Positions 1 through 19,637 of a stretch of DNA of 64,000 nt are shown here, one piece after another. The position numbers and the translations under genes are program-made. The notes beneath the pieces are model-generated. The model worked only from the letters and a program-made list of their open reading frames with translations, ran no database searches and was not told the origin of the DNA. The first letter of the stretch is position 1; the number at the start of each line of letters is the position of its first letter. The stretch is from Savitreella phatthalungensis (Eukaryota), in contig AP039700.1 of the NCBI GenBank assembly GCA_051599415.1, positions 310,001-374,000 on the forward strand, in the 5' to 3' direction.

Positions 1-51
1 GTATTTGTCGCTCCTGCATCTTCACCTTCGGCTGATCTGCTCGCCCGACTA

Positions 52-2010
52 TCAATTCGATCTGATCTGTCGCAGCTCGGGTTCGAATTGTGTGTTTGCT
101 TTTCCATCGTGAATGGGCAGCTCTGAATATAATTTCCGAGTTGGAGGTTCGACGACGGCTGCGACGAAATATTCATAGGCGCCCGGCGGTAGGAGAACAT
201 GAGAAGCGGCCGATATGGCTTTCGAGATCAACTTGCAGCAGCAAGTTCTTGGGAATTTTATGTCTGGCGCAATGAATTTGTGGAAGGTGAAACAATGCCA
301 CGAGTGACCCACATCTCTGGAACGCGGTACTGCAGTGTTCTGCCAACTTGACCTTGCCTTCTCCTCTTCTATCTCCACTCTTTAGGCTCCACATTGGACA
401 GTCCGATAATCCGTCTCTCGAGACTTGTCACATCTCGACACATGCTGGAGTTTGGCTCCTGTCCTGATTGCAACATCCGTAGGCGTGGCTTGCGAGAGGA
501 TGTATTCTTTTTTATTCTGTCGCGGATCTTCAGCTCATGATCAATGGTAGAATATCCGTGAATTTTGACAAAGAGCAATCTCATCGAGAAGGACTTCTAA
601 TTCCTCCTCTAGCCTGATCTACAAGTTTCTTGTGTCCGCTGCAGCACGCTTCTCTCCGCTTCTCTCGCCTCTCTACTCTTCTCTCCGACGACCTCGCGTT
701 GATCTGTTGGTCAGATGAGCCGTCCAGAAGACCTGTGTATCCTAGATCTCGTTTTCTAGAAATGTGATAGGTCGATTTCTCTGTCGTATTCGATCGTTTG
801 GGTGGGTAGCATTCACCCAGGCAGAGTAAGCACTCGATCGTGAATTGAATCAGACTATCCAGAAACGCCACAGACAAGTAATTGGCTCTCACAATTGTGA
901 GAAAACGGTGGCAAGAACAGCGCTGGAAAATTTGTGAGTAGACGTCGTCTGCCGCTCCTTTTGTCAGGCGTCATCACAGCTCCACGTAAGGTGTGACTTG
1001 CATTTGCAGAGCTCATGCCACCGACATTTGCTCTTGCAGATGCATTCGGGCAGTGTTTGTCCGATCACAAGTTGACATTTGACGACCGCGACTCAAGTCG
1101 CTTCGTGTGTCAAGCTCCATCTAATCTCCGGCATTGCTCAAATTATCAGACGGGCAAGCAACAACATGTGCGCATACTTATCATGTGCGTGACTGACGTA
1201 AAGCTCAAAAACATGGCGTAGCTCTGTCTGGTGATTGTTTGTCTGCATCTACTCGAAACCACTGCTCGTATGACCTCTTCCAATCGTGCTTCATAATCTT
1301 GGGTATCATGCTGGCGAAGCTTTCGGGGTCATTTTGAGGTGTGTGCCGCTACTGTCTCGGAGTCGTGTCCCAAACTGTATCAGATACGAGATACAAGGAT
1401 CAGGATTGTGTTTCTAGAGGGTGTGCTCAACAACGATCCATCCTCAGCGTTCCGGCGCGGAGTCTCCCTGATTGACATTGCCAGTTTGTGATCCCCATTG
1501 GTGTTCAATGCTGCTGTCGGATGCATGAGACGATGGTAACGGTGAGCAGGCGCTATAAGGCACGGCAGGCATTGCTCGAACCAGGTCAAGATCTTTTTTT
1601 CACTGAGCGGAACATTGTCCAAGTCCATCCCACGAGCGACTCGCTTGGTACGCGGCTGAGTTCTTGCACAGGCTCTCTAAGCCTCGCGAGGCACTGCGCT
1701 GGGGTCAACAGTTCGGTGCCATCACCATTGCCTCCAGCGCTTTGGTACCGCGTGCCCCTGTTCGCTGGTCTGCATGGCGGCCAGTAAGATTCTCTGCTGT
1801 GGTGGACGAATGAGATGGCTGACATGAGGAGGTCGACGATGGGCGTCTACCACGGCGAATTGCTGTCCACGTGCACGGAGTTGACAAGTCACCTCATATG
1901 GGGACTCAATGCAAGACAGAACGAAATAGCTATCTGACGTAAGAGAACCAGTCGCATTGCACGATCGATGTTTGCACCTGCGATTAGGCCTTTGACTTGC
2001 CATACCCCTT
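52..2010 (-). pseudogene. Degenerate gene C, copy 1 (unknown function)
   Basis: Fragmented frames match 15700-17600(+) collinearly: IESPYEV..QLRA / FEDPLYNV..KLRA; PPHV / PPHV; WFEQCL / SFEQHL; LFVKIHGY / LVIKIHGF; PR..K..HVLLPPG..RKLYSEL / PR..K..HVYLETG..RKFTSFL. Many stops and frameshifts; ends approximate. Confidence 0.5.
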
Positions 2011-2299
2011 GAGATTCGTCCGGAATGCTAAATGTCGAGCTTCGGGTGTCTCTGATTTTCGAGTGTCCGGACTATGCTGACAACACAGCCCTGTATTGCT
2101 CGCCGGATCACATAGCTCCGCTTGTGCAACCTAAAAAGCTTCATCACATGTGATCGGACTGTGGCTCTTCACGGGAGAATTCTCCGAAAAGTGGAGGTGA
2201 TTGGTCGAAAATACTCTTTGCTCGAGCAGCTCCTACTGAATCCCTGTTACCTGGATTGAAAGCGACGGCAAAATTGAGGCAAGAACTGGTCTACCTCAT

Positions 2300-2900
2300 A
2301 GCGTTCGGCAACCGTGGACAATGCATATTTTGCCTATGTACTAAACAAGCCTTATCTTCACGACTCTAGACTCGGTCGGCCATCGAGAGACTCCTGCGGG
2401 TCAATCAGAGGCTTGCTGGCCCACGATGCCTAACAAGCTGCTTGTTGAAGTACAGCGGTGATGTTCACAGATTTCCAAGCTTGCTCGCGCATGACCCTCC
2501 AAAATGCACTGTGATTAAGCATGAGGTTGGCGTCTAGAAGATGCCAGAACATGCTTGTTCAAAATGCTCTACAAGACCTTTGTCGAACATGTTGTGGCTC
2601 ACTTGCTCAGGAGCCTCACATGCATCATGGTCAACTGAGAAATGCGACAACAAAGAGATGTTTAATCTGAGGCTCGCCTGCTCAGGTTGACCAATAAGTC
2701 AAGCCAAAGCACGAGACCTCAACGAAAAACGTCAAGGTCAGCTTGATCGGAATAATCAACAAGTGTCGGGGAAAGCGTGACATTCCTTTCTTGCTCGTAA
2801 CTCCCAATCAGCCTTATAGAGATATTGAGAAACCATTACGAACAGGGCTGCTCACAAGTCTGCAATCTGGATCCATCCCTAATCTCAGCGTCGAACAGAC
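2300..2900 (+). pseudogene. Degenerate gene B, copy 1 (zinc-finger-like relic)
   Basis: Fragments DNAYFAY..NK, HEVGV..CSKC..(frameshift)..EHVVAH, AKARD and CRGKRDIPF match the 10860-11310 fragments in the same order. Limits uncertain. Confidence 0.35.
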
Positions 2901-3859
2901 ATTGAAATTAATTAGGTATGAAGATGTTGACTTGGTCACAATATTAAAACAGCAGCTGAGGTCTACTGGCTCACCCGGTGGACCAGCCTGCCTGAAAAGC
3001 ATTGTGGTGAAGTTTCGGAATGTCGACAAGACAATCTTGCATTAGACATGGGTGAGCAGCGCAAACCTTAAGCTGTGTCGCGTGCAACAGACATATCTTG
3101 GCCACAGCACCGAGCCGGCGAAGGAGTGTACTGCGGTAGCACACGGGATCCCATACCGATACGTTCATATGTTGATATGTTTGGGCGCATGATCCAATGA
3201 GCCCGTGCTCGTCTTCAGACGAGACGATACTCACTCCGAGGACGGCATGCTGCACAATCAGGAATGAGATGGAGCCCCGCCAGGTGGGGAATAGGGGTGG
3301 AGCTCAAGAGCGAGAAACGCAATTAGTGTGGGTCGAGAATCTGAGATTATCATCTCTATGCATAGAACGCGATTGTATGGATTGATTGCAAAGTTGGCGA
3401 TGAGAGAGAATTGGGCAGAGGTGCTTGAGCCCTTTGCGCCGATCTCAAGTGTTTGCAAATCGAAATGGGCACTCCAGATCACTGACTTGACTTTCGCTCA
3501 TAGCAGGCAAAGGCATTTAGCGGATCGGTTGTGGTGGCAGCATAGCGCCGACAGACTCTTTCTTGTGGAGGCCTTGGCAAAGACCCATCTGTAGACGCTA
3601 TCATGGCTGCAGACGATGCATGCTTGTCCTGCTTGGATGACAGATAGAGGTATGCTCCAGGAAGACCACGAGGTCTGACCTGCTTGACCTAGAGCCACTC
3701 CATCACATTCTCGAGCCTATCCATCTCGTCCGAGAGCCTTTTCATCACGTCCCTCGAATATCCTGGACGGCAGGTAGATGCATTCTCGAGAGACCTGCAT
3801 CTGGTCATAGATTCATCTTGAAATCGCATATCTGACCAGGATCGGTATGATCGCCCGAC

Positions 3860-4076
3860 CCTTTTGTGGTGAAGTCACCAAATGCAGGAGGAATTCATCC
3901 GAGACGCTCCAGGAAATGACGTGCTAAGCGAGAATCCCGGGGATTCACCATTCGGAGAATTTATGCCTGTAAGCCACAATTTGATCGATTTTGCAGAAGC
4001 AAAGGCCCGACAGATCAGCTGAGTGGCATCCCGCACACCATTCACCTACAGGAGTTCCATGCAATCGGGCAAGCGA
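3860..4076 (+). repeat. Dispersed ~200-bp module, copy 1
   Basis: Core starts GTGCTAAGCGAGAA at 3921. 30-bp exact match GGCATCCCGCACACCATTCACCTACAGGAG at 4025-4054 and 9262-9291. Confidence 0.9.
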
Positions 4077-4464
4077 TCTATGGCTGGGGGGCAAAAGTTA
4101 GAGAGGCATCTCGAGATAGACAGATCCGAACGCAGATTCTAGAATGAACACAATAGCTATGGCGGTCTGATCTTGCATTGGGTCTACGAGCAGTTCCTCA
4201 ACTCATTCTATTTGACTCGCCCCTCGTCTATGATTTAAGGGTGCCCCTCAATCTTTCCGCCGAGTCTACACATAAATTAAAGTTTAATCATCAGATTTCA
4301 CATGTCAACGGTCATGAGCACCGTTACAAGATAGGCCTCATTGATGCACATGTTAGGCCTCATTGATGCACATGAACCTATGTTGGGAGAGGGCATATAT
4401 CCTCCATCTTTGCCCTTCCACACGCTCGACATAGGTCAGCTCTGCTATCAGCTTCTCGGCAAAC

Positions 4465-7400
4465 ATGGGCAAGAAGCGCAAATGGACCGGAGGCGATTCC
4501 GACGTTCCTCGACTCACCCGAAAACCATGTGCGGCGAGGCTCAAGCAGCTCAGAGATGTTCTCAGGGACGATGTAACGCAAGTCTTTGATGCGTTTGATC
4601 CAAGTGACGGGCCACTGGGCAAAAGGGATCTCGGCTTTATTTCACTGGTCATGGCCTCTTCGTCTGATTCACCGCGACCGTCATCTTCTCATCCACCGCC
4701 CTCGTCATCGCAACCACTCCAAGCAAGTCGCGAGGAACGCCTCGAGCGCTTTAGGGGTGAACTCCAAGTCGGCAGCGACGATCATCTGGACGAGAGACTG
4801 AAGGCCTCGCGAGCGAGGTACCCGAAGTCATGGAGCCTGATCGAGCAAGCTCGCACAAGATTGAGCGCTAAATTGATGCAGGTCAACAATGTCTGGGCAA
4901 CGCCGCTGCTCTATCTCATTGATTTGTACATCAACGAGGCACTCTCACACAACAGAGATCCGCTGATGTGGCGTCCGTCTAACCTGCCCTGTCTGGAAAG
5001 CGTCCTGGCGCTAGAACCGCGCCGTGGCATCGACTCATACATTCACGACGACTTGTTGGAGTTTATGCTGTGTTCCGATCGGCTCCAAACCTTTGGGGGT
5101 GAACGAGTCTCATCACGTCCGCGCCATGTCCATCTAGTCAGGAATCCAAACGAGGTCCAGCAATTCATCTTTGGGGTGTCGGAGGACGCGGCACTACAGA
5201 TTTACAGGGACATGGCGGACATGGACAGGCGAGCGTTTGGGAGGGGCGAACCGCCAGGGTGTACGTTCTCGGATCTGCGGGAGGAGTGCACAACGATTCT
5301 ATTCCCCCTGAATCCCACGACCCGGCACTGGGTTGCCGTCGTCGCGTCTCTGAGGTCTCCCCGACACGTCCTAGAGCTAGAGGGAGGCCCATGTGTGATT
5401 GAAGTCACAATCTTCGACTCCATCGGCGACAACAGCGCCTACAAAGATCGCATGGAGTTTGACATTGTGCAGCTCCTCACGCTGCTTGTCCGAAACAAGT
5501 CCTTATCGGTCACTCTCGACTGCGATGTGGATGTCAAAATCGAGTATGGCCGATGCTCCAAGCAACACAATGATGAGGACTGTGGCGTGCTGACCTCCGA
5601 CAACCTCCTTCGGCTAGACAACCTCCTTCGGCTAGAACGAGACGGGGAGCTCCCTCTGCCCATCACAGATCTGCCCATCACAGATCCCCATGAGATGCAA
5701 CTTCATGGTGAGGAACTTCGCTGGACCACCATGGGGGAGATACGCACAGCCTTCGAACGTCAAACCTTTGGGCCCTATGTCCGTCACCCTAAGAAGAAGC
5801 ACCAAAAGACCGCACGTCGCATTGCAGCTTTGGAGCAGGACCTAGACCGCATGACAGACACATCACCATCATTCGTGCCGCGAGTGCTGGCTTCCAAATC
5901 GAAAGATGATCTCTGCAGCTCGCGACAGAATCTGACACAGCTCGTTACAGACCACCTAGCGATCTCTGGAGGTGCTTCCACCTTTACATCAATCCTGAGG
6001 TCAGTCGAAGCCAGATGGGGCAAAGTCTTTGCCAAGCAGGAGGTCTCCCTGGCTGCGCTTGTGGAAGCACTGCTGGTTGCCTGCCCGGCGTCATTTGCAA
6101 AGAGCGGGAACAGCTGGGTCCTGCACGAAGCACCCGCAAGCTTCACAACAGCACAGGTCCGCCTGATTCAGCACCCGAGTCACGATGCGAGTCACGATGT
6201 CTACGGATCGGCCTCCCAGCACGATCGGCAGAACAAGTGTCACGACGACGACGTCTACGAATCGGCGTCCCACCATGATTGGCAGATCCCGTACGAGGAG
6301 ACACATCTTGTTGTTGCTGTATCGCGCAAGAGCCGTGGACACGTCAACGATCACGCGGTTGAGGCTCACAAGCGCAGACCCGGGCAGATCGAGGAGGCCT
6401 TCTATGCCAGATACTCCACCACCACCACCCAAGAACGACGCATCAAGGTCAAGGACTTTGCCCACCTCCAGCAAGTTCTAGAGAAGGGCAAGCTGGGCTG
6501 GTACTCTTTGCCGATCGAACCAGTGTCCAGCCGCGCAAGGTTTCTAGAGCGCAATGACCCTATCAACTCCGACTTCCTGAAGCTGCTCCAGGACGCCAAC
6601 AACTTTCCGGTGAGACACGACGTCAGGAGAAGCAAAATGCGTGAGCTTCTTCAGGAGAAGAACTGCTTGAATGTCCGTCTGGTCGCCACTGGATGGGACG
6701 GACTCTCGACGAATCCTGATACGTTCACTTGGCTCGTTGAGACGTTCAAGAACGTCAACTTTACGCTTACTCTGATCATCAGGGACAGCTCGATCCTTGA
6801 TCTCACCAGCTTTGGTCCGGGTACGCCCCATGGGTCAGGTCTGGATCACTCAGGTCTGACGCGCCACGACGGACTGAAAGATCTGACCTGGTTCAACTTC
6901 AGTATCAGGCATCTCGCCTCCCTGCGGAGTGGCATTCCGACAAGGCTGGACAGGGTGGAGGCTCATCACTTGCGCCTCCTACTGTACCTCTACAAGATCG
7001 ACTGTGCCAAGGCACTACAAGGGGTGATTGAGCGCGTTATCGGCTACAATGACAAAAGCTTCAAGCAGAAAGGCGAATCTCTCGGCTGCTATCTAGCGAG
7101 CACATGGACGCGCCTCGGCCTGGATCTGCCAACAGCCAACGATCGATCACCTGCCAACGATCGAGATGATCGAATTCCAACAGACGATCGATCTCTCGAT
7201 CGTGCAACAGACCGATGCGCAGCGCGAGAGGAGAGCACATACCTCTGTCCAGTATGTGACAAGGAAATGCCGCTTGTTGAGGCACGAGGTCATCTGGGAC
7301 GGCACATCGCATGCTCTGGCGATGGGAAGAAGTGTCCGGTCGCACTGTGCACTTACACTCTTCCAAAGTCGCATCGTCCGGTTATGCTGGCTCACATCAA

Positions 7401-8127
7401 GACACACGAGACCACTGCAGGCAAAAGTCGGCCAAGACTAGTCTGCGTTGACTGTGGTGCCTCCTTCAAGCACGAAAATCAGCTTGTTCAACATGCCGCA
7501 GTTCACAGAGGAGAGTACGTCTGCGATGACAGCGATTGCGGAGAAGTAGATCGCACCTTTGACAGACGCGGGCTGAAGGGGCACAGGAAGAGGATACATG
7601 GCCATCTGTACAAGCACCACAGTGCCTCAAACTACAATCTGCCATATATCTGCGGGCATTCAACCTGTCGAAAGGGGTTCAAAAGCCTGCACGCATTGCG
7701 AACGCACGATCGGCAGGGTCACAGACGTCATCAGACAAGAACGGTGCAAGACAACGACCATACGAATGAGGCTGTGGGTGAGGACACGAGTGGAGGTGCG
7801 CATGAGGCTGCGAGTGAGTACACGATTGAAGATGATCGAGACGCACTGGAGGTCGAAGATGAGAAAGACGCAATAGAAGACGATTACCACGAAGATGCAG
7901 TGGAAGTCGAAGACGACGCAGACGCACCCGAAGACGAAGACGACGAAGACGACGAAGACGCACCCGAAGACGAAGACGGACTCGAAGACGAAAACGACGA
8001 AGACGCACTCGAAGACGAGGAATGGAACTGGCCTTCAAGCTCTCCTGCACCACAGAGCGACGACAAGCTAAGTTTATGGCGCAGGCCGCCGGTGGCAAAG
8101 TTCTGCCCCTTCTCTATTCCCGTCTGA
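4465..8127 (+). CDS. ORF A: 1220-aa multidomain protein (Ulp1/C48-like protease, winged-helix-like segment, serine-recombinase-like segment, 5 C2H2 zinc fingers, acidic tail)
   Basis: Uninterrupted ATG-initiated 3.66-kb ORF. C48 motifs HW (H288), FDS (D318), QxNxxDCG (Q367, C373). Five CxxC/Cx4C...Hx3-4H fingers at aa ~928-1086 (nt ~7240-7722). D/E-rich tail. Confidence 0.85.
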   Translation: MGKKRKWTGGDSDVPRLTRKPCAARLKQLRDVLRDDVTQVFDAFDPSDGPLGKRDLGFISLVMASSSDSPRPSSSHPPPSSSQPLQASREERLERFRGELQVGSDDHLDERLKASRARYPKSWSLIEQARTRLSAKLMQVNNVWATPLLYLIDLYINEALSHNRDPLMWRPSNLPCLESVLALEPRRGIDSYIHDDLLEFMLCSDRLQTFGGERVSSRPRHVHLVRNPNEVQQFIFGVSEDAALQIYRDMADMDRRAFGRGEPPGCTFSDLREECTTILFPLNPTTRHWVAVVASLRSPRHVLELEGGPCVIEVTIFDSIGDNSAYKDRMEFDIVQLLTLLVRNKSLSVTLDCDVDVKIEYGRCSKQHNDEDCGVLTSDNLLRLDNLLRLERDGELPLPITDLPITDPHEMQLHGEELRWTTMGEIRTAFERQTFGPYVRHPKKKHQKTARRIAALEQDLDRMTDTSPSFVPRVLASKSKDDLCSSRQNLTQLVTDHLAISGGASTFTSILRSVEARWGKVFAKQEVSLAALVEALLVACPASFAKSGNSWVLHEAPASFTTAQVRLIQHPSHDASHDVYGSASQHDRQNKCHDDDVYESASHHDWQIPYEETHLVVAVSRKSRGHVNDHAVEAHKRRPGQIEEAFYARYSTTTTQERRIKVKDFAHLQQVLEKGKLGWYSLPIEPVSSRARFLERNDPINSDFLKLLQDANNFPVRHDVRRSKMRELLQEKNCLNVRLVATGWDGLSTNPDTFTWLVETFKNVNFTLTLIIRDSSILDLTSFGPGTPHGSGLDHSGLTRHDGLKDLTWFNFSIRHLASLRSGIPTRLDRVEAHHLRLLLYLYKIDCAKALQGVIERVIGYNDKSFKQKGESLGCYLASTWTRLGLDLPTANDRSPANDRDDRIPTDDRSLDRATDRCAAREESTYLCPVCDKEMPLVEARGHLGRHIACSGDGKKCPVALCTYTLPKSHRPVMLAHIKTHETTAGKSRPRLVCVDCGASFKHENQLVQHAAVHRGEYVCDDSDCGEVDRTFDRRGLKGHRKRIHGHLYKHHSASNYNLPYICGHSTCRKGFKSLHALRTHDRQGHRRHQTRTVQDNDHTNEAVGEDTSGGAHEAASEYTIEDDRDALEVEDEKDAIEDDYHEDAVEVEDDADAPEDEDDEDDEDAPEDEDGLEDENDEDALEDEEWNWPSSSPAPQSDDKLSLWRRPPVAKFCPFSIPV

Positions 8128-9114
8128 AGCACGACGCAGTCGATGTTACGAATGTATCCTCACACGACTATTATCCGACCCATTGAATTAAATCGAATCG
8201 TTGGCCTACAGCCACAATTAGTTCCAGCCAGATGGTGCGTACTCTATGTAAGGATGCGCAGGCTTCCATATCAGATACCACTCCTTTTCACTCCGATTGC
8301 GAACCCAGGCTTGACACTATATCTATACAAAACCTTGTGTATTTTTCCAATCGGCCACCCTGGGTCATTTGAATGAGGCGTCAAACCCGTCCGAGCACTA
8401 GCTTCTCGTCTATTGTGTGGTGCTATCGAACAGAACACCTGAGGATCGCTCAATGGAAAGATGTGCTGACCATGCTTTGCCACCGAGCTTAGACAGGGCA
8501 TTGAAGTCGCCTGAAGACGGCCGATCGCTATGTCAAGCTGGACACTGACACTCCGTCAGCCGTTCCACAATTGCTGCTCGCCTTCTCTGAATCAATCCGA
8601 TAGGCGATCATTTGATGTCAATGGACGCGCCAGGACGCAATATGAGGTTGGGACAAAGCCGGGCGAAGCCGATTGTAAAATTGCACTGTTCTCACACGTC
8701 CGCAACCTTCTTGGGCGCCCGACATGATACACACAACCTTCACAGAGAAGAGGCAGAGCCACTTCAAAGAGCTGTTGTGGTGGGAAATTCTGCTTGACGC
8801 ACTTTCTCTTCTCGCCAATTCATCCGGTCCGATCGCGATGATCGAAACACATGCGCGAGCGTATTGACCCTCACCTCCTCCCCTATACGAGAAAGATACC
8901 ATGCGACCTGCAGACTGGATCGATCAACGAGCTAAATCATGGTTGAGGTCTTTCCACAAGGCAACAGACGATCGATCGAAGCCCCGTCCATAGACTAAGC
9001 GTGTCAGACAGCAAGTCAACGCGTTCTTGCCACAGGATGGGAGATTAGTGATCATGAGCTCTACCCAATACCCATGTCCACGTTTCGTTTGGACTACTTC
9101 AGGGTAATATCAAC

Positions 9115-9313
9115 GCAGGCAGGAGGTTCCCGTAGGAGCAGCTCGAGCGAAGAAGGTGCTGAGCGAGAATTCCAGGTCCCCCCATCTTTCGAAGAATTTA
9201 TGCTTCTCAGCCACAATCCAATCGACTTTGCAGAAGCAAAGGCCCGTAAGATCAGCTGCGCGGCATCCCGCACACCATTCACCTACAGGAGCTCCATGAA
9301 CTCGGGCAAGCGA
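9115..9313 (+). repeat. Dispersed module, copy 2 (direct repeat of 3860-4076)
   Basis: GTGCTGAGCGAGAA at 9156; collinear with copy 1 through TCGGGCAAGCGA. Confidence 0.9.
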
Positions 9314-9626
9314 ATAACGATCGAGTGGAGAGAGTGGCAGAGAGAGTAACGAGGGTGATTCAATCTTGTTGTACGACGCAAACCTCGACGAAATTTGAGA
9401 GGCCGGTTTCTTGAGACTGGCGATCCTCGCGTCTTGCCGACTACACATGATACCCTCGGGAGCTCAACCACTATCGAGCGTGTTGTCCGATGCAATCCAT
9501 TGCTGAAGTAAAGTGCTGGGAGATAGAAGTAGTAAAGACGAAAACAGAGGAGCACGGCGGACAGAACTGTCACCCAACCGCTTTGACAGACGCACGTGAG
9601 AAGAGAAGAGAAAAAAGAAAAAAAAA

Positions 9627-9726
9627 TGCCTCCACCCGGATTTGAACCGGGGACCTTGTCGTCTCACATATTTTCTATGGCGAAAATTTTACAAGCGACA
9701 CGCCTTGACCACTGAGCTATAGAGGC
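9627..9726 (-). tRNA. tRNA-Thr(UGU) with intron
   Basis: Minus strand GCCTCTA TAGCTCAGTGG ... anticodon stem TGTCG/CGACA, loop CT-TGT-A, ~27-nt intron after position 37, T-arm GGTTCAAATCC, 3' TGGAGGC-A, followed by an oligo-T Pol III terminator. Confidence 0.95.
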
Positions 9727-10449
9727 TGGCGAAAAATCCGGAAATCGAAAGGGTCCGGGGATCTGCGATGGTAGGATCGCACAAGCGCCTTGTATATATA
9801 GAAACGGCTTGTGAAGGTGGCGTTCGAAATGGTACACAATCGGACCAAATTGCAATCCTTCGACTCTTGCGGGTCAATTGCGTTTGTCCTTGCTTGCTTG
9901 TTCTGGTTGAAATCTTCTCGAGTTTCTCAGCTGCGCAGTCATCATATGTCAACGACAAATCACATCAACCCAAGGACATCAATTTGGACGCGTCTCTGTG
10001 TATACCGCATTTCGCGTTGAAACTGGCACGTCGAGACACACGTCTCACGTCTGCCGGCTAATCCGTTCACCTAGCGGGTCTTCAACGAAATGTTCTTTTG
10101 CTCAGACATGGCTAATATGCGCAGAGCGACTCGAGGCTATCGAGACGATCTCCACTCCCTCTTCCAAATGTAGTATGTGTCAAAGTTCGAGCTTGTTGAG
10201 TATGATAGAAAGCTCATCGCGAAAAGTTGATGTTGTGATAGCAATGCCTCGCTTGAAAATCGCCCTCGAACGTTCAGCCGGACGTTATCGATGTGGTTCG
10301 ACCGGGATCGTGATCGGTTCATGGCACTTTGGTCTAACTTTGTCTTTGGAATCGGATCGGCCGGTCACATTATGTGGCTAAGACGGAATTTAGCACCTTC
10401 GACGTGTCCTTCTGCACCGACAAAACCGACGTCAAGTGTTGAGTGAATC

Positions 10450-11463
10450 TGTGCAGAAGGCCTGCTGACCGTTTTTGTCCGTCTCAAAGTCTGCAGGACC
10501 TACAGTTCTTGTGCAGCTCAGAGGACGTCATTTGGACGACAGAGGTTAGCGTGATGAAACGTGATGAGCTCTGCACTCTTCTGCCAAACTTGATGCGCCT
10601 TGTAGATTTCTACATCTTGCGTTCTCTGGCAACCCCTACTTTGGTCTTGATTGTGAAGTGGTAGGGAGCTAGTCGATGCAAATGATATGCCAAGTATGAT
10701 GTCTATCTGGCTGATCCTCTTGAAGCGTCTTTGGAAGCCTGACCGGCGTGATTTGAGAATTGCGGGAATTGGTGGCTTCTGCGAATTGCTTCCGCAAATT
10801 CGACGACGACATCGATCCACTTGATCAGAATCATAATGACGGGTTTTGGCTTCACAAGTTTGGGTTTGACAACTTGCTCGCCTACAACAAGAAGTCGTGC
10901 TTGGGGAATCTGACGTGCGATCAAGCGGCCGTCTGGAGGGAGAGCACTGGCCCGATGTTGGGATCAGCACTCTCATGATGAGTAGCAATCGCGGAGACGC
11001 CTTGACTCTCCATCATGATGTCCGAGTGGCGGAATCGGAGAAAGTCTTCAGGGACAGTAAGTGCGCCAAGTGTGGAAAGAGAGTATCTGGCCATCTGGCG
11101 AAAGTTGAACACGCGGTTGTCTGGCATGGATTGCTGGCTGTCCGCAGGCCTGCTGGCAACGTTGTGTTTCTCTTCGAGACAACGCTCAGGCAGGCACGCA
11201 AATCTGTACCGGCAGTGTCGCGAAGCAAAATCGCGCGATCAAAGACATCCACTATACGTCGGGTCCAAGGATACTTGCCAGCGTGCTTGGCGAAGCGCGT
11301 CCCCTTTTTCGGCAGAATTTTGGAGAAGTACCATCGACTACCGGATGAAGTAATGGTTTTCGACAGGATCGTTCTTTGTGTTGTCACAAGTCGCTACCAA
11401 GACGCCCGGAATGGCGACACCGGAACGCACTGTCCTGTCGTCATCCTGAGGCTGTCGGCGTGA
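10450..11463 (+). pseudogene. Degenerate gene B, copy 2, with a C2H2 finger
   Basis: CAKC-x12-H-x4-H (CAKCGKRVSGHLAKVEHAVVWH) near 11062-11128; coding-like fragments broken across frames; similar to 2300-2900. Confidence 0.45.
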
Positions 11464-12915
11464 CCAGAGTTTGGGAGCCCAAAGACAACTTTATTGGGCT
11501 GGAGGCTTGGTTGTCTCGATTGGGCGTGGCATGACGACACGGATGGCAACATAGGGGCGTAGAATCTGGGATATGTATACAGGGCGCCCGGAGAGGTGGA
11601 TTGATTCCTATGTAAATATCGGTCGCCATTGAATTGCCGCCTGCGGTGCAAAGTCGTAGGTTGAGACAGGACCGACGTTGTGTCCACTAGTGTCGTCACA
11701 GGTTGCTGCCATGGCGTCGAAGATGTCGGCGCCAATCAAAACACGTGCACTACAGAGGCAATCTATCAGGACATACCCATTGTCCCGGACCTGCCCAGCA
11801 TAGTCCGGATCAGGTGCTGAAATTGATCGAATGATCCATGACACCATGTATCGGCCGGCCAAATGGCTTGAGTGCTGGGCGCGGCCTGGCCTGTAAGACG
11901 GTGAAAGCTGCCTGAAATCAGGCGGCCACCTTCGAGATCCAGTTCGAGTGTTGACCCATGTTTATTGAGAAGCCTCCAATTTGTACAATGTTGACCTGGT
12001 TGTGACGAATTTGACCCGGGTTCAACTTCGACTGGTGGCTCATGGCACTGCCTTCAAGTGGGGAGGTTCAGATCCAGCTTGCGGGCTAAAAAACTGACTC
12101 AGCGGTATCAATAGCCGCGCAAGCTCAGACTTCACTGACTATTCACTGTTTACAACAACCCGTTAATTTTGATTTCAAAATTCAACACGAAGACGGGAAC
12201 ATCTGCGACTGGGACCTCCGGGGTTGGCAAGTTGGGAAGTTCACATCGATGCATTAGACAAAATGATGCCTAATAGAGGGCGAAGGAATGCCGGCTAAAA
12301 GAGTTTGGTCGTGCCGGCCGCCCATGCGCGCTGCTTTCGCGGGCACATCGAATCATAGCCCCGTCCTGCAACGATGATAGATATAAACATTCATCGGTAA
12401 AATCCTCGATACCGGGAACTTCGAATCTGGTCATTTCGCTTATTCATCGTGCGTGCTGATTTTGCGATGATGTCATCAATGCAAGGAATTATCCCGCGGT
12501 GCTCAAGCGTACATCGTGCTAAGCGAGAAATCTGAATGTTCCACCATTCGGAGAATTTGTGCTTGCAAGCCACAATCCGATCAAATTCAAAGGATCAGGT
12601 TCCCAACGGACAAACTCTGCGGCATCCCGCGCACCATTTATCCATGGAAAGTCCAGGAGAATCTGCGAGCAAATCAAATGTTGGGGTTTTGGGCAATCTC
12701 AGATATGATCTGTGGGCGCATGATGTCGCGTGATGCATTTATTCCCTGACTTGACTAGAATTGACTGGAATCTTGTTACGTCAGACTTGCCTTCGACTCC
12801 CCATGGAATCACATATGTGTATATATAGGAACAGAAATGTGCAGCAATATGGATCGGATACCTGTCACTTCAAATTTCGTCGTCGTCGTCGTCGTCTCTT
12901 TGTGCACAAGCAGTC

Positions 12916-13578
12916 ATGCCCAAGAAGCGTACAGCGCTTTCTGATGGCGAGGAGCAATCCAACAAGCGACGCGATAGCTCCCCGAAGGAGCTCTCCATGC
13001 CCAAGAAGCGTACAGCGCTTTCTGACGGCCAGGAGCAATCCAACAAGCGACGTGACATCTCTCTGAAGGAGGCTACTCGGATGTTCAAGTGCGCGGCCGG
13101 CTCATATGACCTTAACAGCAATCTGACTGAGGGCAAGCGGAACTTCATTGAAACAGCGTTGGCACTGGATCTGCCCTCCTCAGATTCGGCCAGACCATCA
13201 TCGTCGAATCCTCAACCACCAAACACAGCCACTGGACTAAAGTCAGTCAAGTCTCGCACAATTCGGGAGACGACTTCAGGAGCAGAGCAGCAAGACGCAA
13301 ATTGATCGGCTCTACAGTCCTGCAGACAACCTGACGCACTGATCACGGACCACTTGGCCATCTGTGACGGATCCTCTACCTTCGGGTCAATCCTGAAGTC
13401 AGTAGAAGTCCGATGGCATCATTGGTTCGTCAAGAACAAGAAGTGCGAGCATACTTCTCCAAGCGCTACTGAGAGCTTGTCAAGCGTCGTTCCAGGAGGT
13501 CGAAGGACGATGTCCCTTACGTCAGATGCCTGCTACTTTCTCGACAACGCACATTGCTTCTGTTCACGAACCAGAGAC
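12916..13578 (+). pseudogene. Truncated, frameshifted paralog of ORF A (left arm)
   Basis: MPKKR start (duplicated 81 bp), SSDSARPSSSNP, frameshift then stop at 13305, then LITDHLAICDGSSTFGSILKSVEVRW matching ORF A LVTDHLAISGGASTFTSILRSVEARW. Confidence 0.8.
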
Positions 13579-14287
13579 CGTTGCCGTGATCGGCTCTGAC
13601 AGCTTCTATGGCAAGATAGGTCTTGTCTGGATCGTGAGTCGCAGCAATCTGCTCTGTCGTGAAAGTAGCAGGCATCTGACGTAAGACATATCGTCCTTCG
13701 ACCTCCTGGAACGACGCTCGACAAGCTCTCAGTAGCGCTTGGAGAAGTATGCTTGGGCACTTCTTGTTCTTGACGAACCAATGATGCCATCGGGCTTCTA
13801 CTGACCCAAAGGTAGAGGATCCGCCACACATGGCTAGGTGGTCCGTGATCAGCTGCACCAGGTTGTCTGCAGGACTGAAGAGCCGATCTGTTTGTGTCTT
13901 GCTGCTCTCCTTGCGCGCTTTCTGATCTTGTACTTTGCTCTCCTCCTGCAGTCGTCTCCTGAACTGTGCGAGGTTTGACTGTCTTTGACCCAGATTGAGT
14001 GTGTTTGGTCGAGGATTTGATGACGGTCGAGGATTTGATGACGACCATCCAGGATTCGATGGCGACGGTGGAGGATTCGACGACGATGGTCCTGCCGAAT
14101 CTGAGGAGGGCAGGTCAAGTGCCAACACTCTTTCAATGAAGTTCCGCTTGCCCTCAGTCAGATTGCTGTTAAGGTCATATGAGCCGGCCGCGCGCTTGAA
14201 GATCCGAGTAGCCTCCTTCAGAGAGATGTCACGTCGCTTGTTGGATTGCTCCTGGCCGTCAGAAAGCGCTGTACGCTTCTTGGGCAT
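13517..14287 (-). CDS. Short paralog of ORF A (N-terminus + winged-helix-like segment only), open frame; may be a pseudogene
   Basis: ATG of MPKKR at 14287 (ORF track starts 14332). NLVQLITDHLAMCGGSSTFGSVEARW..ALLRACRASF..PATFTTEQI matches ORF A aa ~489-565. Lacks the protease, recombinase-like and zinc-finger parts. Confidence 0.55.
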   Translation of the reverse strand: MPKKRTALSDGQEQSNKRRDISLKEATRIFKRAAGSYDLNSNLTEGKRNFIERVLALDLPSSDSAGPSSSNPPPSPSNPGWSSSNPRPSSNPRPNTLNLGQRQSNLAQFRRRLQEESKVQDQKARKESSKTQTDRLFSPADNLVQLITDHLAMCGGSSTFGSVEARWHHWFVKNKKCPSILLQALLRACRASFQEVEGRYVLRQMPATFTTEQIAATHDPDKTYLAIEAVRADHGNGLWFVNRSNVRCRESSRHLT

Positions 14288-15699
14288 GATTGCTTGTGCA
14301 CAAAGAGCTGATGATGACGACGACGACGACATTTGAAATGATACGGTCTCCTATCCATATATAGTGATGCACATTACTGTTCCTATGTGATATCATGTGA
14401 GGAGTCGAAGGCAAGTTAGACGGGTACCTGCATATGGTTAACGAGATTCCAGTCAATTCTAGTCAAAGTCAAAGAATAAATGCATCACGCGACATCATAC
14501 AACCACAGCTGATATCTGAGACTGGCCAGGTCTCAATGTTTGATTGTTCGCGCTTTCACACAAGAGCCATGAATTGCTTGCAGAGTCTCCTGAACTTTCC
14601 ACAGGGGAATGGCGCGCGGGATGCTGCAGAGCTTGTCCGTTTGCAACCTGATTCTTTGAATTTGATCGGATTGTGGCTTGCAAGCACAAATTCTCCGAAT
14701 GGTGGAATATTCAGAATTCTCGCTTAGCAAGATGTGCTCTCGCGCGGCGCAAGACAATTCTCCTGCATCGATGAGATCACCACAAATTTTAGCCAGCACG
14801 ATGAATGAAGGGGACTAACGGGACTTGAATTTCCCTGCATCGGGGATTTTACCGCATAAGCTGGGGTAATAACAGCTAGTCGTCTGGAGGTAGCAAAATT
14901 CAAACCATCATCAGACGTACGATTTATCCCTACCGCTATTGCTTGAGTATCGTACGCAATCTTGGGCTTAGCTTCAGTCCTACGCAATCTCGGGCTTCCC
15001 TTCAGTCATTGGAGTGCTCATTGATGTCATGGCTTTTCGATCGGCGGTCCTGGCGGATCTACTACTCCAAAAGTCACGCATGCGCCGTGTATGTGTGGAG
15101 AGCGGGTCTGTGAAAGCTTCCGTAAGTTCTGGACTCGGCTGCAGGTCTGGATCTGATGGATGTTGATGTTTACCATCGTTGCAGGTCGGGGCTATGATTC
15201 GATGTGCCTGCCAAACCATCGCGCATTTGCGGCCGGCACGAACGCCCAAAACTTTTTAGCCGGTTTCCCGCCGCCCTCTATCGTGCATCATTTTGTCCAA
15301 TCCATAGATGTGAGCTTCCCAATTTGTCAAACCCAGTCCCCAGTCTCCGGTCCCCGGTCCTTGAGGTCGAGCTCTAAAGGGAAACACATGGGCCACACCA
15401 GACCTTGTTTTCCTTCCGTAACTGAACTTGCACTTTGACTGCTGGTTCAGACTCACTTAGCACATCAGACTTCACAGACTAGTTCTGTAGCCTGGTTCCA
15501 TTCCTTCTTCCTTTGCTTTTCCCCCAGCTGTCTGTGATCGAGTCAGATACAAGTCTGTGTTCGAGTGAGACGGCACATGGAGAATGCCACATCATCACGA
15601 GTTGAAAGCGCGCTTCCCTAAGTCAGAGGGTTCATCGGGTTTCCCCGCCGTGGAGCGGTCCTACGGTGTGATCAAGCGCTCTGACAGCAAACACTTGAG

Positions 15700-17600
15700 A
15701 TCAAGGCAGCATTTGCTACTAGGACAGCCCGGCGGGCGTTTTTTGTGAGTCCCACTTCTTCGAGGATCCATTGTATAATGTTTCTCATCATGAACTGAAG
15801 CTGCGTGCGGAACGCCATCGTGCTGCACAGCAACTCGTGCGGACCAGTCCATCCACCGCATGTGCTGCAATGTGCATGAACGATATCAGCATGGGCGTGC
15901 CCTCTGTGCAAATCATTTGCAACACGCCCAGCAGCAACATGCCCATTCCGCTTGGTGCAAGCTATTCTCCATGGCGTCTGTTGCCTCACATCACCCACAA
16001 CGCATCGTGGCCCTGGCCAGCATCACTTGCTGAAGTGACAGAACGATTGTGTGCAGCATACGATGCGCCGCGGCAAGCTTGATAAGGCCACGCAAGGAGG
16101 GAAATAGAAGCCCTTCTCAGCAGGATCGTCACACTCCAAAGACCCCGTCGCCCTGTCAGCGGCGTACCCGAAATGGATCTCCAAGCAGGATAAGAGCTTA
16201 TAGGCTTCCACGGAGTCTTTCCTCATTTGAGCAGCACTTGTCAGATGATCTGCAGCCGTGGAGACCATCATTGTGGAGACATCAATGATCGCCGCTTCTC
16301 ACTCTTTAGTCACACTGTTGAGTGAGTGAGCCTCAGCGCGCCTGACCGCGGTCTTTGTGGAGCCTTTTGAACAAGCATGTTTCGACGCCATTTTGACGCC
16401 GATCTCATGCTTCGCCAAAGTATTTTTGAGCACTGCGCACAGGCCAGCATGGCAACTCTGTCAATGCCCTCTCCGTGCTTCCCCGGAAAGGTCTGCAGGC
16501 GTTGTGGGTGAGCAAGCTTCGCCACATGAGATGATGCGATCACGTCGCATTAAAAGTTTGTTGGGGATCATAGGCGAGCTTTTCTCGACAGTCGTGAAAC
16601 GCCACCATTCTTTTAGCATAGTACGGAGGAGACCTGGACAAAATGCATGCACTACCACAGTCTCCGTCGAGCATCATGCGCGAGCAACCCTTGTGATTCC
16701 GGGGACGACTCTCACACATTCCGACACAGCGTTTGTCAGACTCGTAAGCCGGAAAACATCGGCGTGCTCTACGTCATTGTCCTTTGTGGCTCCTGAGCGA
16801 GCAAAGTCTCGACACTAGCAGGAAGAGCGAAGATTCGCATGCTCCCATCCAGTCAGGTCAAGGATGACGCCCCGGAGAGATGAGTCGGCCACAGTTGGAG
16901 GGGTGGAGCAGCCATGCAGCGAGGCAGCCACAGGAACGGCCTTTAGCCTCTCGAGATTTGATTTTGGTCGGAACAACAAATCACTTGGACTGGCGCCTGA
17001 GCTTCTTGGCGGAGCTGCTAGTGTGATCGCTTTCATGCTCGTGAACGGGACGCTGGTGATCAAGATACATGGCTTCACGTTGCGCTCAAACACAATTGAA
17101 GTCTGTGTATGCGAGCGCGGCCTGACCTCGATAAGGTTGTCATGTCACTCGCGTGCTTCACCATGGTGTCCCTCAAATCTGACACACCGATTGCCATGCG
17201 GGAGAGTGCCCATCGAGATACCGCAGGGGCGTTGACGAGAGCGCTATGCTCCTGTTCATTTGCTCTTGGAGGCTATCAAAGCCACATCTGCATCTATTCG
17301 ACGACGAGCTGTCCCCGCTCGATCCTGATTTCGTCTGAGAAGCTGCTGAAAGTCGCAGTCGTATCTCTGCATGTGTACCTCGAGACGGGACAGTGTCGAT
17401 CAGGCATGTTCCGGAAATTCACGAGCTTCCTTATTCGTGAGGATACCGATCGCGTGGTAGCGTATACCGACGAGCAGATCTGGAGGATCGACGCGAAGTC
17501 TTGGAGAACTGATCAGAGAGAACTCGGACTCGAGATCGGAGGCGGCTCTCTCTCTCTCCTCTCCCAAAATGGCGTGACGATCATCCGCGGAAGAAAATCC
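15700..17600 (+). pseudogene. Degenerate gene C, copy 2
   Basis: Collinear peptide matches to 52-2010(-), plus nucleotide matches such as TCAGCGGCGTACC / TCAGCCGCGTACC and AAGCTTCGCCA. Multiple stops and frameshifts. Confidence 0.5.
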
Positions 17601-18148
17601 CCGTCATCTGAGTGGCTCGGATTAGCCAACAGGGGTTCGAATCAATCGTGCAACCACATAATGCAATTTGCAATTTGAAGCGATCTAAATTTGAATTTAT
17701 TTGGAGACACGGAATTTGAAAGCAATTGAGCGCTTTCACCTTCTGAAACAAATTGACAGCATAGACTCGATCTTATTCTAGTATGCAGAGGATTACAATG
17801 AATTGATTCTCAATCAATCATTCACGCATTCACCCAATTAATCCACTGACCGCTCCTATACTCATACTCATACTCAGACTCATACTCCAGCTAATCACAG
17901 CCAGTTTCATCTAAATCGCGTCACATCCGGGGAAGCCACGATGGGAGAACCCGTATATCCGTGACCCGTTATCCTCCAGGAAGATCCTCCAAATACCATA
18001 ACGACTAAGAGGCATCCGAAATCACTCCCAAAGATAAGACGCTGGATGTCAGCCTTATAAAGCTGCGGGTTCCCATAGGTTCCTCTCACCCCAGTATCCT
18101 CACCCCAGTATCCTCAGCGCAGGCACTCCTCCTACCCATTTCCTCTAC

Positions 18149-18184
18149 TCTCCTCTCCTCTCCTCTCCTCTCCTCTCCTCTCCT
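18149..18184 (+). repeat. (TCCTC)n microsatellite
   Basis: About 7 pentamer units just upstream of the ATG at 18210. Confidence 0.9.
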
Positions 18185-18209
18185 TTCCTCCCCTCTCTCA
18201 CTCACGAAC

Positions 18210-19637
18210 ATGCTTGCTCTGGCGGCAGTCGATGTAGCAACAAATAGACCAAATGCTAGCATCAGCTCAGGCGCTACACGCCGGCGAGCGCTGCCGTACT
18301 ACATGGGCGGCACTAGCGGGATGTCTGAACGGAGCACAATCACTGCTGCAGACCGACAGGCCATGAGCTGCCGCCCAAATTGCCTGAGTGTGCCGTGGGT
18401 GCATGGGCCCGAAAGCGTTCCAGGGTACGGCCACGAGGACAACAGCTTCAAGCCACTCCTCTACGCCCTCGTTGCCAGACCTCCTCGATCTTCACACCCA
18501 AAGTCGGACCCGTCAACAGGCGTCGAGTCGTCTGGCAGCTCGACACACAGCACAGGCTCACGTGGCGGACCGAGGGCAGCGACCTCCACAGGCACGATCA
18601 CAGTTCCCAAAAGCGTGAAAAAGTCGGCGGTGTTCGCGCTCGAGTGTCCGACCTTTGGCGAGCAATTTGTGTTTGGGCCTGGCGTTGGTGTTGACGGGGA
18701 CGGGCTTGTGCGTGGCGGGTACGCTGCCAGCGGGCGACACCTGCGCCGGATGGTGGAGTCGTCGTTCGGAATGTATCGCGAGCGTCTCCCGAACACATGG
18801 GGCGCGCCAGGAATTCACCCAGGAGGAGGAGCAGCAGCAGCAGCAGCAGCAGCACCCCTCTCCACAGACACTCACTCGCAGCACTCCTCCCTTTACCGAA
18901 CCGCACTCGAGATCCCATCCCCCGGATCACCCGTCTGCACGGTCGATCGCCCCCGCAGACCGCGCGTCAACATTCGACAGAAGGACCCGAGTGTGCGGGT
19001 GACGTTGCCGCGGTCAGGTGCTGTGGTGGAGGTGGTAGTCTGCCGTGGCGGATACTGCTCGTTCAGGGTGCCCGGATCGCTTCTCGGTGGTGGCAAGGAT
19101 GGTCAGGTGGAGTACACGTGGCAGCTGCGGTGGCTCGAGCCGATCGGCGGGACATCCATCTCGTCGTCTGTGTCTCGGGACCCGCCACGGCTCAGGGACG
19201 CCGTCTTGCGGAAGCAGGGTGAGAAGGCCATTGCCTGGTACATCCCCACAAAAGATCCCCTCATCCGTGATCACCAGGAACCAGACATCCTACACCGCCC
19301 GTCACCCTCAGGTCGCAGCACCCCAATCCCAAGAATCACCTCGTCGAGCTCACTCCGAGGACAATTCTCCCAGGCCGGCGTCACCATCGATAGAGAGTCC
19401 TCGAGGAGCGCACGCTCCGGTGGAGACCGTACACCAGAGTACGATCACGCCTCATACCAGCTCGGCACGCTTGTCTCCCGACTCGATCTCTCACCAATCG
19501 ACCGGGAGCTGACTGTGAGCACGTTCGGAGCAATCTACGGAAGGGTGGTCGGTGCAGTGACGAGCGGAGTCGATCTCGCTGGCCTCGAGAGCATGCTCTT
19601 GTCTGGTCACAAGCTGGCCGGTATGTCGTGGCGGTGA
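18210..19637 (+). CDS. Hypothetical protein, 475 aa
   Basis: ATG-initiated 1.4-kb ORF after a pyrimidine-rich leader, with a TATAAA at ~18056. Ser/Gly-rich linkers and beta-rich segments; family not recognised. Confidence 0.75.
   Translation: MLALAAVDVATNRPNASISSGATRRRALPYYMGGTSGMSERSTITAADRQAMSCRPNCLSVPWVHGPESVPGYGHEDNSFKPLLYALVARPPRSSHPKSDPSTGVESSGSSTHSTGSRGGPRAATSTGTITVPKSVKKSAVFALECPTFGEQFVFGPGVGVDGDGLVRGGYAASGRHLRRMVESSFGMYRERLPNTWGAPGIHPGGGAAAAAAAAPLSTDTHSQHSSLYRTALEIPSPGSPVCTVDRPRRPRVNIRQKDPSVRVTLPRSGAVVEVVVCRGGYCSFRVPGSLLGGGKDGQVEYTWQLRWLEPIGGTSISSSVSRDPPRLRDAVLRKQGEKAIAWYIPTKDPLIRDHQEPDILHRPSPSGRSTPIPRITSSSSLRGQFSQAGVTIDRESSRSARSGGDRTPEYDHASYQLGTLVSRLDLSPIDRELTVSTFGAIYGRVVGAVTSGVDLAGLESMLLSGHKLAGMSWR

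Follow-up and report, generated by a model that had tools for sequence, protein, structure and literature searches.

A diverged tail-to-tail duplication of half a gene in Savitreella phatthalungensis, probably the scar of an old rearrangement

The question raised by a large inverted repeat in the genome of Savitreella phatthalungensis is whether it acts as a source of silencing hairpin RNA or is what remains of a rearrangement. The repeat lies in a 64,000-nucleotide (nt) stretch of DNA, here called the window (positions 310,001 to 374,000 of contig AP039700.1, assembly GCA_051599415.1, forward strand; all coordinates below are those of the window), which also encodes ORF A, a long open reading frame (ORF) of 1220 amino acids (aa). 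An earlier note had described two convergent arms derived from ORF A, likened them to inverted transposon fragments, and put forward both readings. The locus is probably a rearrangement scar: a palindromic duplication, old and in decay, in which the 5′ half of a lineage-restricted family gene stands tail to tail with its copy.

The 2.4-kb inverted repeat that had been placed at 12395–14855 is real and extends further, that interval being its inner part only. Global alignment delimits two tail-to-tail arms of 1.4–1.7 kb, the left at 12207–13586 on the plus strand and the right at 13611–15345 on the minus strand, in an interstitial structure of about 3.1 kb. A repeat search within 11000–16500 gave 19 inverted pairs with a collinear set running from 12220/15334 inwards to 13575/13626, and self-BLASTN matched 12996–14288 to its own reverse (1407 columns, E 0.0), 12395–12990 to 14854–14213 (E 1e-138) and 12207–12395 to 15345–15155 (E 9e-45); no extension of the inverted repeat was found beyond 12207 and 15345. 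The outermost 190 nt or so, about 80% identical, lie past a segment of about 300 nt (14855–15154, minus strand) that is present in the right arm only, through insertion there or deletion from the left arm, and of which self-BLASTN found no second copy in the window. Arm against arm, the 1261 ungapped columns include 1103 matches (87.5%); the mismatches divide into 93 transitions and 65 transversions, and 23 indels occupy a further 569 gap columns. This bears out the description of the arms as similar but not identical. The centre measures 50 nt (13576–13625) by an ungapped criterion and 24 nt (13587–13610) once weak gapped homology reaching 13586 and 13611 is counted. Repeat-induced point mutation (RIP) was considered and is ruled out by the symmetry of the substitutions (G>A 27, A>G 26, T>C 23, C>T 17) and by the RIP indices of the two arms, which are 0.40 and 0.46 for TpA/ApT and 1.50 and 1.48 for (CpA+TpG)/(ApC+GpT).

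Each arm holds an upstream element of about 200 nt, an N-terminus resembling a nuclear localization signal, a Ser/Pro stretch and a helix-rich domain of about 100 aa, all in common with ORF A, and both arms are devoid of the Ulp1 protease core, the zinc fingers and everything 3′ of the domain. Upstream sequence and ATGs are found in both, as had been reported, at 12916 and 12997 in the left arm and at 14332 and 14287 in the right. The right arm is an inverted copy of the left-arm unit in which the reading frame is intact; its 271-aa ORF (13517–14332, minus strand), with a second in-frame ATG (MPKKR) at 14287, crosses the centre and ends antisense within the left arm. In the left arm, the frameshifts noticed earlier correspond to indels of 2, 1 and 2 nt and are joined by one stop. 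Two ORF fragments are left on the plus strand, one of 129 aa (12916–13305) that covers the N-terminus, an in-frame tandem duplication of 81 nt included, and terminates past a frameshift, and one of 81 aa (13354–13599) that covers the first part of the domain before the frame shifts again. Judged by these frames, the left copy (the 5′ half of the gene preceded by the upstream region and the conserved element) is now a pseudogene. The arms further differ by 12 nt, the right arm reading STFGSVEARW and the left STFGSILKSVEVRW with an extra ILKS, and by two extras in the right arm, a Ser/Pro-rich one of 57 nt that accounts for the SSNPRP expansion and another of 33 nt.

The arms had been called derivatives of ORF A, and this holds in the sense of distant paralogy and not of anything closer. 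ORF A (4465–8127, plus strand) is an intact family member, a nuclear-looking protein composed of an N-terminus resembling a nuclear localization signal, a Ser/Pro stretch, an Ulp1 (C48) core, the shared domain (aa 473–571), a C2H2 region and an acidic tail. Its Peptidase_C48 match (PF02902, aa 274–377) scores 24.4 bits against a cut-off of 20.7 bits (E 2.9e-5) and its C2H2 matches are weak, while Pfam gave no Peptidase_C48 match in the arms. The right-arm ORF is 46% identical to ORF A over the domain (E 7e-20), and the N-terminus and Ser/Pro stretch of the two are collinear as read from the translations and from tblastx patches. The arms are nearer to P0001, a hypothetical protein of the same species, than to ORF A: the last in-arm residues of the right arm match P0001 at 15 of 16 positions, as against 58% to ORF A.

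P0001 also provides a view of the centre. Its residues 1–31 align to the left-arm frame at 13526–13606, through the spacer (E 1.5e-4), whereas to the right arm it aligns over 16 aa only (13675–13628; 15 identical). Because this match crosses the spacer from the left and stops after residue 16 on the right, the 24-nt spacer (13587–13610, plus strand) is native to the left copy, whose coding sequence it continues. A spacer of this kind together with a gene cut just past the domain fits a duplication by fold-back or template switching. A break inside the gene would have been followed by fold-back priming or template switching that copied the upstream part in reverse, leaving as the loop 24 nt that belong to the left copy and eliminating the 3′ portion of the gene. 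Since then the arms have diverged by about 12% in substitutions, without a RIP pattern and with many indels; the left copy has been broken by three frameshifts, a stop and the 81-nt tandem duplication, and the right copy is still open for 271 codons. At least one patch of gene conversion would also have passed between them. A search for remnants of the 3′ part of the gene on the minus strand left of the left arm returned only non-collinear matches (E 0.05–3), which were rejected. The diverged palindrome, the truncation at its centre just past the domain and the single pseudogene copy together favour the scar that the earlier note had offered as one of its two readings.

The putative conversion patch adjoins the tandem duplication. 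The latter has a period of 81 nt, and its 76-nt copies at 12915–12990 and 12996–13071 (plus strand) are 91% alike; the second, inner copy is identical to the right arm, and the first, outer copy lies within a 114-nt match at 89%. Beginning exactly at this duplication is a block of 222 nt (12996–13217, plus strand) that is 95% identical to 14067–14288 and includes perfect runs of 87 and 63 nt, as seen in the repeat search and identity profile. Lying next to this duplication, the block suggests inter-arm gene conversion and is taken as a candidate tract.

The public sequencing runs that hold parts of this region fall into two groups. Runs X1 and X2 come from one sample, perhaps the source sample, and the agreement of X1 is for this reason not independent support; X3 and X4 are runs of another study with a depth of 2–4. 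The Logan contigs of X1 that tile the region match it exactly, including one of 298 nt (13452–13749) that crosses the centre with 0 differences. Contigs of variant sequence and higher depth are found at 12065–12169, at 13627–13855 (X2 only, with the 12-nt ILKS insertion) and at 15417–15530, and point to related copies elsewhere in that genome. Over 8000–18500 the unique-sequence depth of X2 swings between about 5 and about 307 and the run leaves a gap at 12569–12913, and the depth of X1 is flat at 32–41; X2 may not be a plain genomic library, and its depth was not used as evidence. Run X3 contains pieces of the left outer end (12191–12324, 7 differences) and of the right outer end (15178–15343, 14 differences), the second of which by eye runs collinearly into the right flank after a gap of about 13 nt, so that both arm ends seem to be present in a relative. 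Pieces of X3 and X4 from the left-arm interior (12363–13382) are 98–100% identical to the window, with 0, 1, 1, 1 and 5 differences in 151–302 nt. In the right-arm interior (13616–15154) no X3 or X4 piece was shown except a trace near 13817, which at a depth of 2–4 was not used as evidence.

Several points weigh against the locus being simply a decaying scar. The mechanism of origin is one that we infer. A founding microhomology is no longer recognisable at the centre; 13540–13660 was read for inverted microhomology at the turn-around, where the divergence of the arms hides any founding one. There is also an inverted patch of 204 nt, 66% identical, between 2408–2609, far upstream of ORF A, and 16319–16520 in the right flank. 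With this patch it is the right copy that fits the original context, and a left-parental origin needs a later change of the sequence left of 12207, which probably took place; the patch suggests an older, larger duplication of the locus. Furthermore, all four of the X3 and X4 pieces that are at least 99% identical sit in the left-arm interior, the flank and outer-end pieces being 85–97% identical, and plain neutral decay does not explain this near-identity. The options are constraint at the nucleotide level, a low-cover strain mixture in which only two-copy words assemble, or recent exchange. Finally, comparison of the arms gives a dN/dS ratio (non-synonymous to synonymous substitution rate) of 0.64, from 33 non-synonymous and 16 synonymous differences, and the right-arm frame is open; the right copy may be a gene that still works and not debris.

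That last point leads to the rival that survives best, although we regard it as doubtful. The right arm would be a working gene whose product is a short nuclear protein composed of the N-terminus and the domain, such as a truncated family regulator; the left arm would be its dead twin, and the palindrome would have no role of its own. The 271-codon frame has stayed open despite 12.5% divergence of the arms, and the right-arm length differences in the coding part (57, 33 and 12 nt) are all multiples of 3. Polarised against ORF A and P0001, the union of three comparisons gives 10 replacements derived on the left and 3 on the right, although these counts are small (binomial p about 0.09). The dN/dS value is about that expected for one constrained and one free copy. 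The AlphaFold2 (AF2) model of the shared domain, with a mean predicted local distance difference test score (pLDDT) of 61, has an ordered H-H-H-beta-beta core at residues ~30–100 (pLDDT 70–80); Foldseek gave 0 matches to this domain in the PDB at E ≤ 0.001, and the several weak rows that were winged-helix proteins included none that was usable. Against a working gene, the last ~35 residues of the ORF are antisense to the left arm, so its C-terminus is accidental, and no homologue of similar length was found: none of 1435 candidates, all of them proteins of 149–475 aa, matched at E ≤ 1e-3. The ORF is not recognised in the Atlas (nothing above 0.77; recognition 2028, below 2300), and it has no significant Pfam match (the best, at 19 bits, lies below its 23.5-bit cut-off). 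It may still be expressed.

The second rival, a hairpin or double-stranded-RNA silencer, is the other reading of the earlier note and seems to us unlikely. Transcription starting in the promoter region of either arm would run through a centre without a terminator into the other arm, and the RNA, whether folded back or convergent, would be diced into small RNAs that silence closer copies of the family elsewhere. The folding predictions agree with this. The inner 601 nt are predicted to form a very stable hairpin (−483 kcal/mol, z −30, 0 of 20 shuffles as good), as the earlier note had supposed of a read-through RNA, and 10 perfect inter-arm runs of at least 21 nt remain, totalling 398 nt. At the level of motifs only, a TATATA hexamer is present in the upstream sequence of each arm, and neither AATAAA nor ATTAAA occurs on the sense strand from the ATGs to the centre, the nearest AATAAA past the centre being at 14475 (plus strand) and 12743–12738 (minus strand). 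P0001, with its match to the end of the right arm, provides a closer family member as a possible target, and the high-depth X2 variant contig over 13627–13855 and the near-identity of the left-arm interior in the runs of the other study count in the same direction. Dicer and Argonaute are reported, in an excerpt of PMC4159005, for Taphrina deformans and Schizosaccharomyces and as lost in Pneumocystis. On the other hand, arms that are just 87.5% alike with 23 indels resemble decay and not maintained pairing, and the family is without any transposon hallmark. The longest exact match of the arms to the rest of the window is 17 nt, which makes ORF A itself implausible as a target, as had been suspected. 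The structure could give double-stranded RNA if it is transcribed, and it would matter more in that event, the fungal group being reported to retain RNA interference (RNAi) in the same excerpt (PMC4159005).

In its fullest form this proposal describes a natural hairpin-RNA locus with promoters of its own, in an early-diverging ascomycete yeast that is competent for RNAi. Convergent promoters would drive transcription through the terminator-free palindrome, and the double-stranded RNA would check a young, locally expanding Ulp1/zinc-finger family or its closest copy, the P0001 locus. We hold this to be distinctly improbable; were it true, the near-identity of the left-arm interior in the runs of the other study would be due to selection, at the nucleotide level, on the arm that produces the guides. 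Plants offer well-documented cases of natural hairpin loci by which a gene family is policed. None is known to us in this fungal group, no literature search having been made for this point. The sole Rfam hairpin match at the centre, MIR856 at 28 bits against a gathering score of 297, is noise.

The premise that the arms are transposon fragments was not upheld. ORF A has no transposase-type Pfam match, its domains being Peptidase_C48 and the weak C2H2 matches, and the sequence around it showed neither terminal repeats nor target duplications. Transposase, reverse transcriptase (RT) and integrase families were absent from all 64 scanned frames of at least 75 aa in 1–18.3 kb, these being 64 of 91 frames after removal of frames that lay within ORF A or repeated the arms; the premise is unsupported because no such domain was found in the first 18 kb. 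A mobile element of the foldback type, whose long inverted arms would be the terminal repeats of a unit transposed or inserted whole, is very unlikely. In its favour, a direct repeat of 17 nt (16 of 17 identical) at 12125–12141 and 15465–15481 (plus strand) flanks the palindrome and gives the sole two matches in the window, where 0.04 are expected, although the pattern was derived from these two sites. Both sites lie within segments that have higher-depth variant contigs in X1 and X2 and are thus repeated elsewhere in the genome, so that the sites are part of a dispersed repeat. The direct repeats, however, stand 65 and 119 nt outside the arm ends and are no target-site duplication at those ends; apart from the 17-mer, the flanking segments 12040–12200 and 15390–15560 have no BLASTN similarity at E ≤ 0.01. 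Moreover, the arms hold a gene promoter and 5′ half and not tandem subrepeats, the variant contig 12065–12169 by eye runs collinearly towards the left arm with no empty site, and the frame scan found no transposase nearby.

The remaining rival, an assembly artefact from a chimeric fold-back read or mis-join, is most improbable: palindromes with tiny spacers are a known class of artefact and the only runs that hold the stretch well (X1 and X2) may be of the source sample, but an artefactual fold-back gives identical arms whereas these differ at 158 positions and by 23 indels, the X1 contig spans 13452–13749 without differences, and pieces of both outer arm ends occur in the runs of another study. 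It is this divergence of the arms, by 12.5%, and the X1 contig across the centre that identify the structure as no product of assembly.

The probable scar belongs to a small cluster of copies of an orphan Ulp1/zinc-finger family. In about 18 kb there are one intact copy (ORF A), one dead copy and the palindrome, and ORF A is the one long ORF in 1–18200 of an otherwise gene-dense, intron-poor window. The dead copy (9103–10829, plus strand), found by sequence comparison, comprises the upstream element at 9103–9341 and the domain at 10494–10829 with 4 in-frame stops. The element, which is non-coding and has long invariant blocks, precedes all four family copies; those of ORF A (3862–4104, plus strand), the left arm (12460–12670, plus strand) and the right arm (14564–14786, minus strand) were located by self-BLASTN and alignment. 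Its versions at ORF A and at the dead copy are 77–87% identical to each other and about 70% identical to those of the arms, and as the coding sequence has only 33–46% aa identity the element is better conserved than the coding part. It may be a promoter or an element of the 5′ untranslated region. An RNA gene was considered and rejected (consensus −18.5 kcal/mol, covariation term −0.81, 3 of 40 pairs compensatory, no Rfam match), and a degenerate 30-nt pattern of the element had 0 matches in a metagenome scan. A further metagenome scan, by protein, gave 99 pattern matches with 0 confirmed.

A phmmer search with ORF A residues 1–1199 against 1.84 billion representatives gave 348 matches at E ≤ 1e-3. 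Two were close among the matches listed, P0001 (314 aa, 65% identical to ORF A 609–903) and P0002 (261 aa, 61% identical to ORF A 974–1198); they are neighbouring hypothetical proteins of S. phatthalungensis, are not encoded in the window, and may be paralogues elsewhere on the contig rather than orthologues. Nearly all of the remaining matches listed fell in the zinc-finger region (about aa 890–1090), with P0042 (27%, aa 123–383) and the distant, C48-bearing P0104 of Zasmidium cellare as exceptions. For the shared domain, the matches listed from these representatives included no detectable relative outside the family of its own genome.

Other features of the neighbourhood were recorded as well. 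Six overlapping copies of a repeat with a 27-nt period (7839–8027) encode the acidic, D/E-rich tail of ORF A. Between the element and the domain of the dead copy, Rfam placed a transfer RNA (tRNA) at 9627–9726 (minus strand; 52 bits, 100 nt), probably with an intron, whereas ARAGORN found zero tRNAs in the window. Downstream of the palindrome, a 475-aa ORF at 18210–19637 (plus strand) in a stretch of 60% GC has no Pfam match at E ≤ 0.1. S. phatthalungensis is described as close to Protomyces and Taphrina in an excerpt of PMC8877625. The window itself looks fungal and its yeast Taphrinales-like; one housekeeping protein encoded there has 68% identity to a protein of Protomyces lactucae-debilis and 64% to one of Taphrina deformans.

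Among known systems, the family can be set beside the Ulp1/SENP (Peptidase_C48) proteins with extra domains, such as P0104 (1627 aa). Like ORF A these carry C48, and P0104 and ORF A share a second region as well (ORF A aa 646–777); unlike them, the arms are without any protease part. In the inverted-duplication model, young plant MIR genes arise from inverted copies of their targets, and the present locus resembles that model in being an inverted duplicate of a gene fragment that decays towards an imperfect hairpin. Mu killer (Muk) of maize is, in the portion of PMC3440606 that describes it, an inverted duplication of part of mudrA that includes two TIRA copies, for which a hairpin RNA of about 4 kb by read-through from a flanking gene is proposed. 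As far as that description goes, the likeness lies in a partial, 5′-side inverted duplication that includes the upstream terminal region, is of kilobase scale, stands tail to tail and would give a long hairpin on read-through. Unlike in Mu killer, the duplicated gene has no transposase or transposon hallmark, the arms have diverged by 12.5% with many indels, and the host is a yeast and not a plant.

The probable rearrangement scar compares most directly with the fold-back (hairpin-primed) inverted duplications and palindromes that form at DNA breaks in yeasts, as described in excerpts of PMC11724301 and PMC10123110. Two inverted copies with a very short spacer are common to both; in S. phatthalungensis the spacer belongs by origin to one of the copies, and the gene breaks off at the centre. 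According to an excerpt of PMC10164571, spacing and divergence limit the instability of inverted repeats, and the differences between the present arms would account for the tolerance of the structure. As a scar the locus is not surprising, yet it would be a clean natural case of a fold-back-type inverted duplication surviving to about 12% divergence in a compact genome of a yeast, and would help to date such events and to study gene conversion between the arms of a palindrome. Whereas the yeast cases are fresh experimental events that range from a few bp to chromosome arms, the palindrome described here is old, interstitial and 3.1 kb long, and neither its founding microhomology nor its outer junction is legible any longer.

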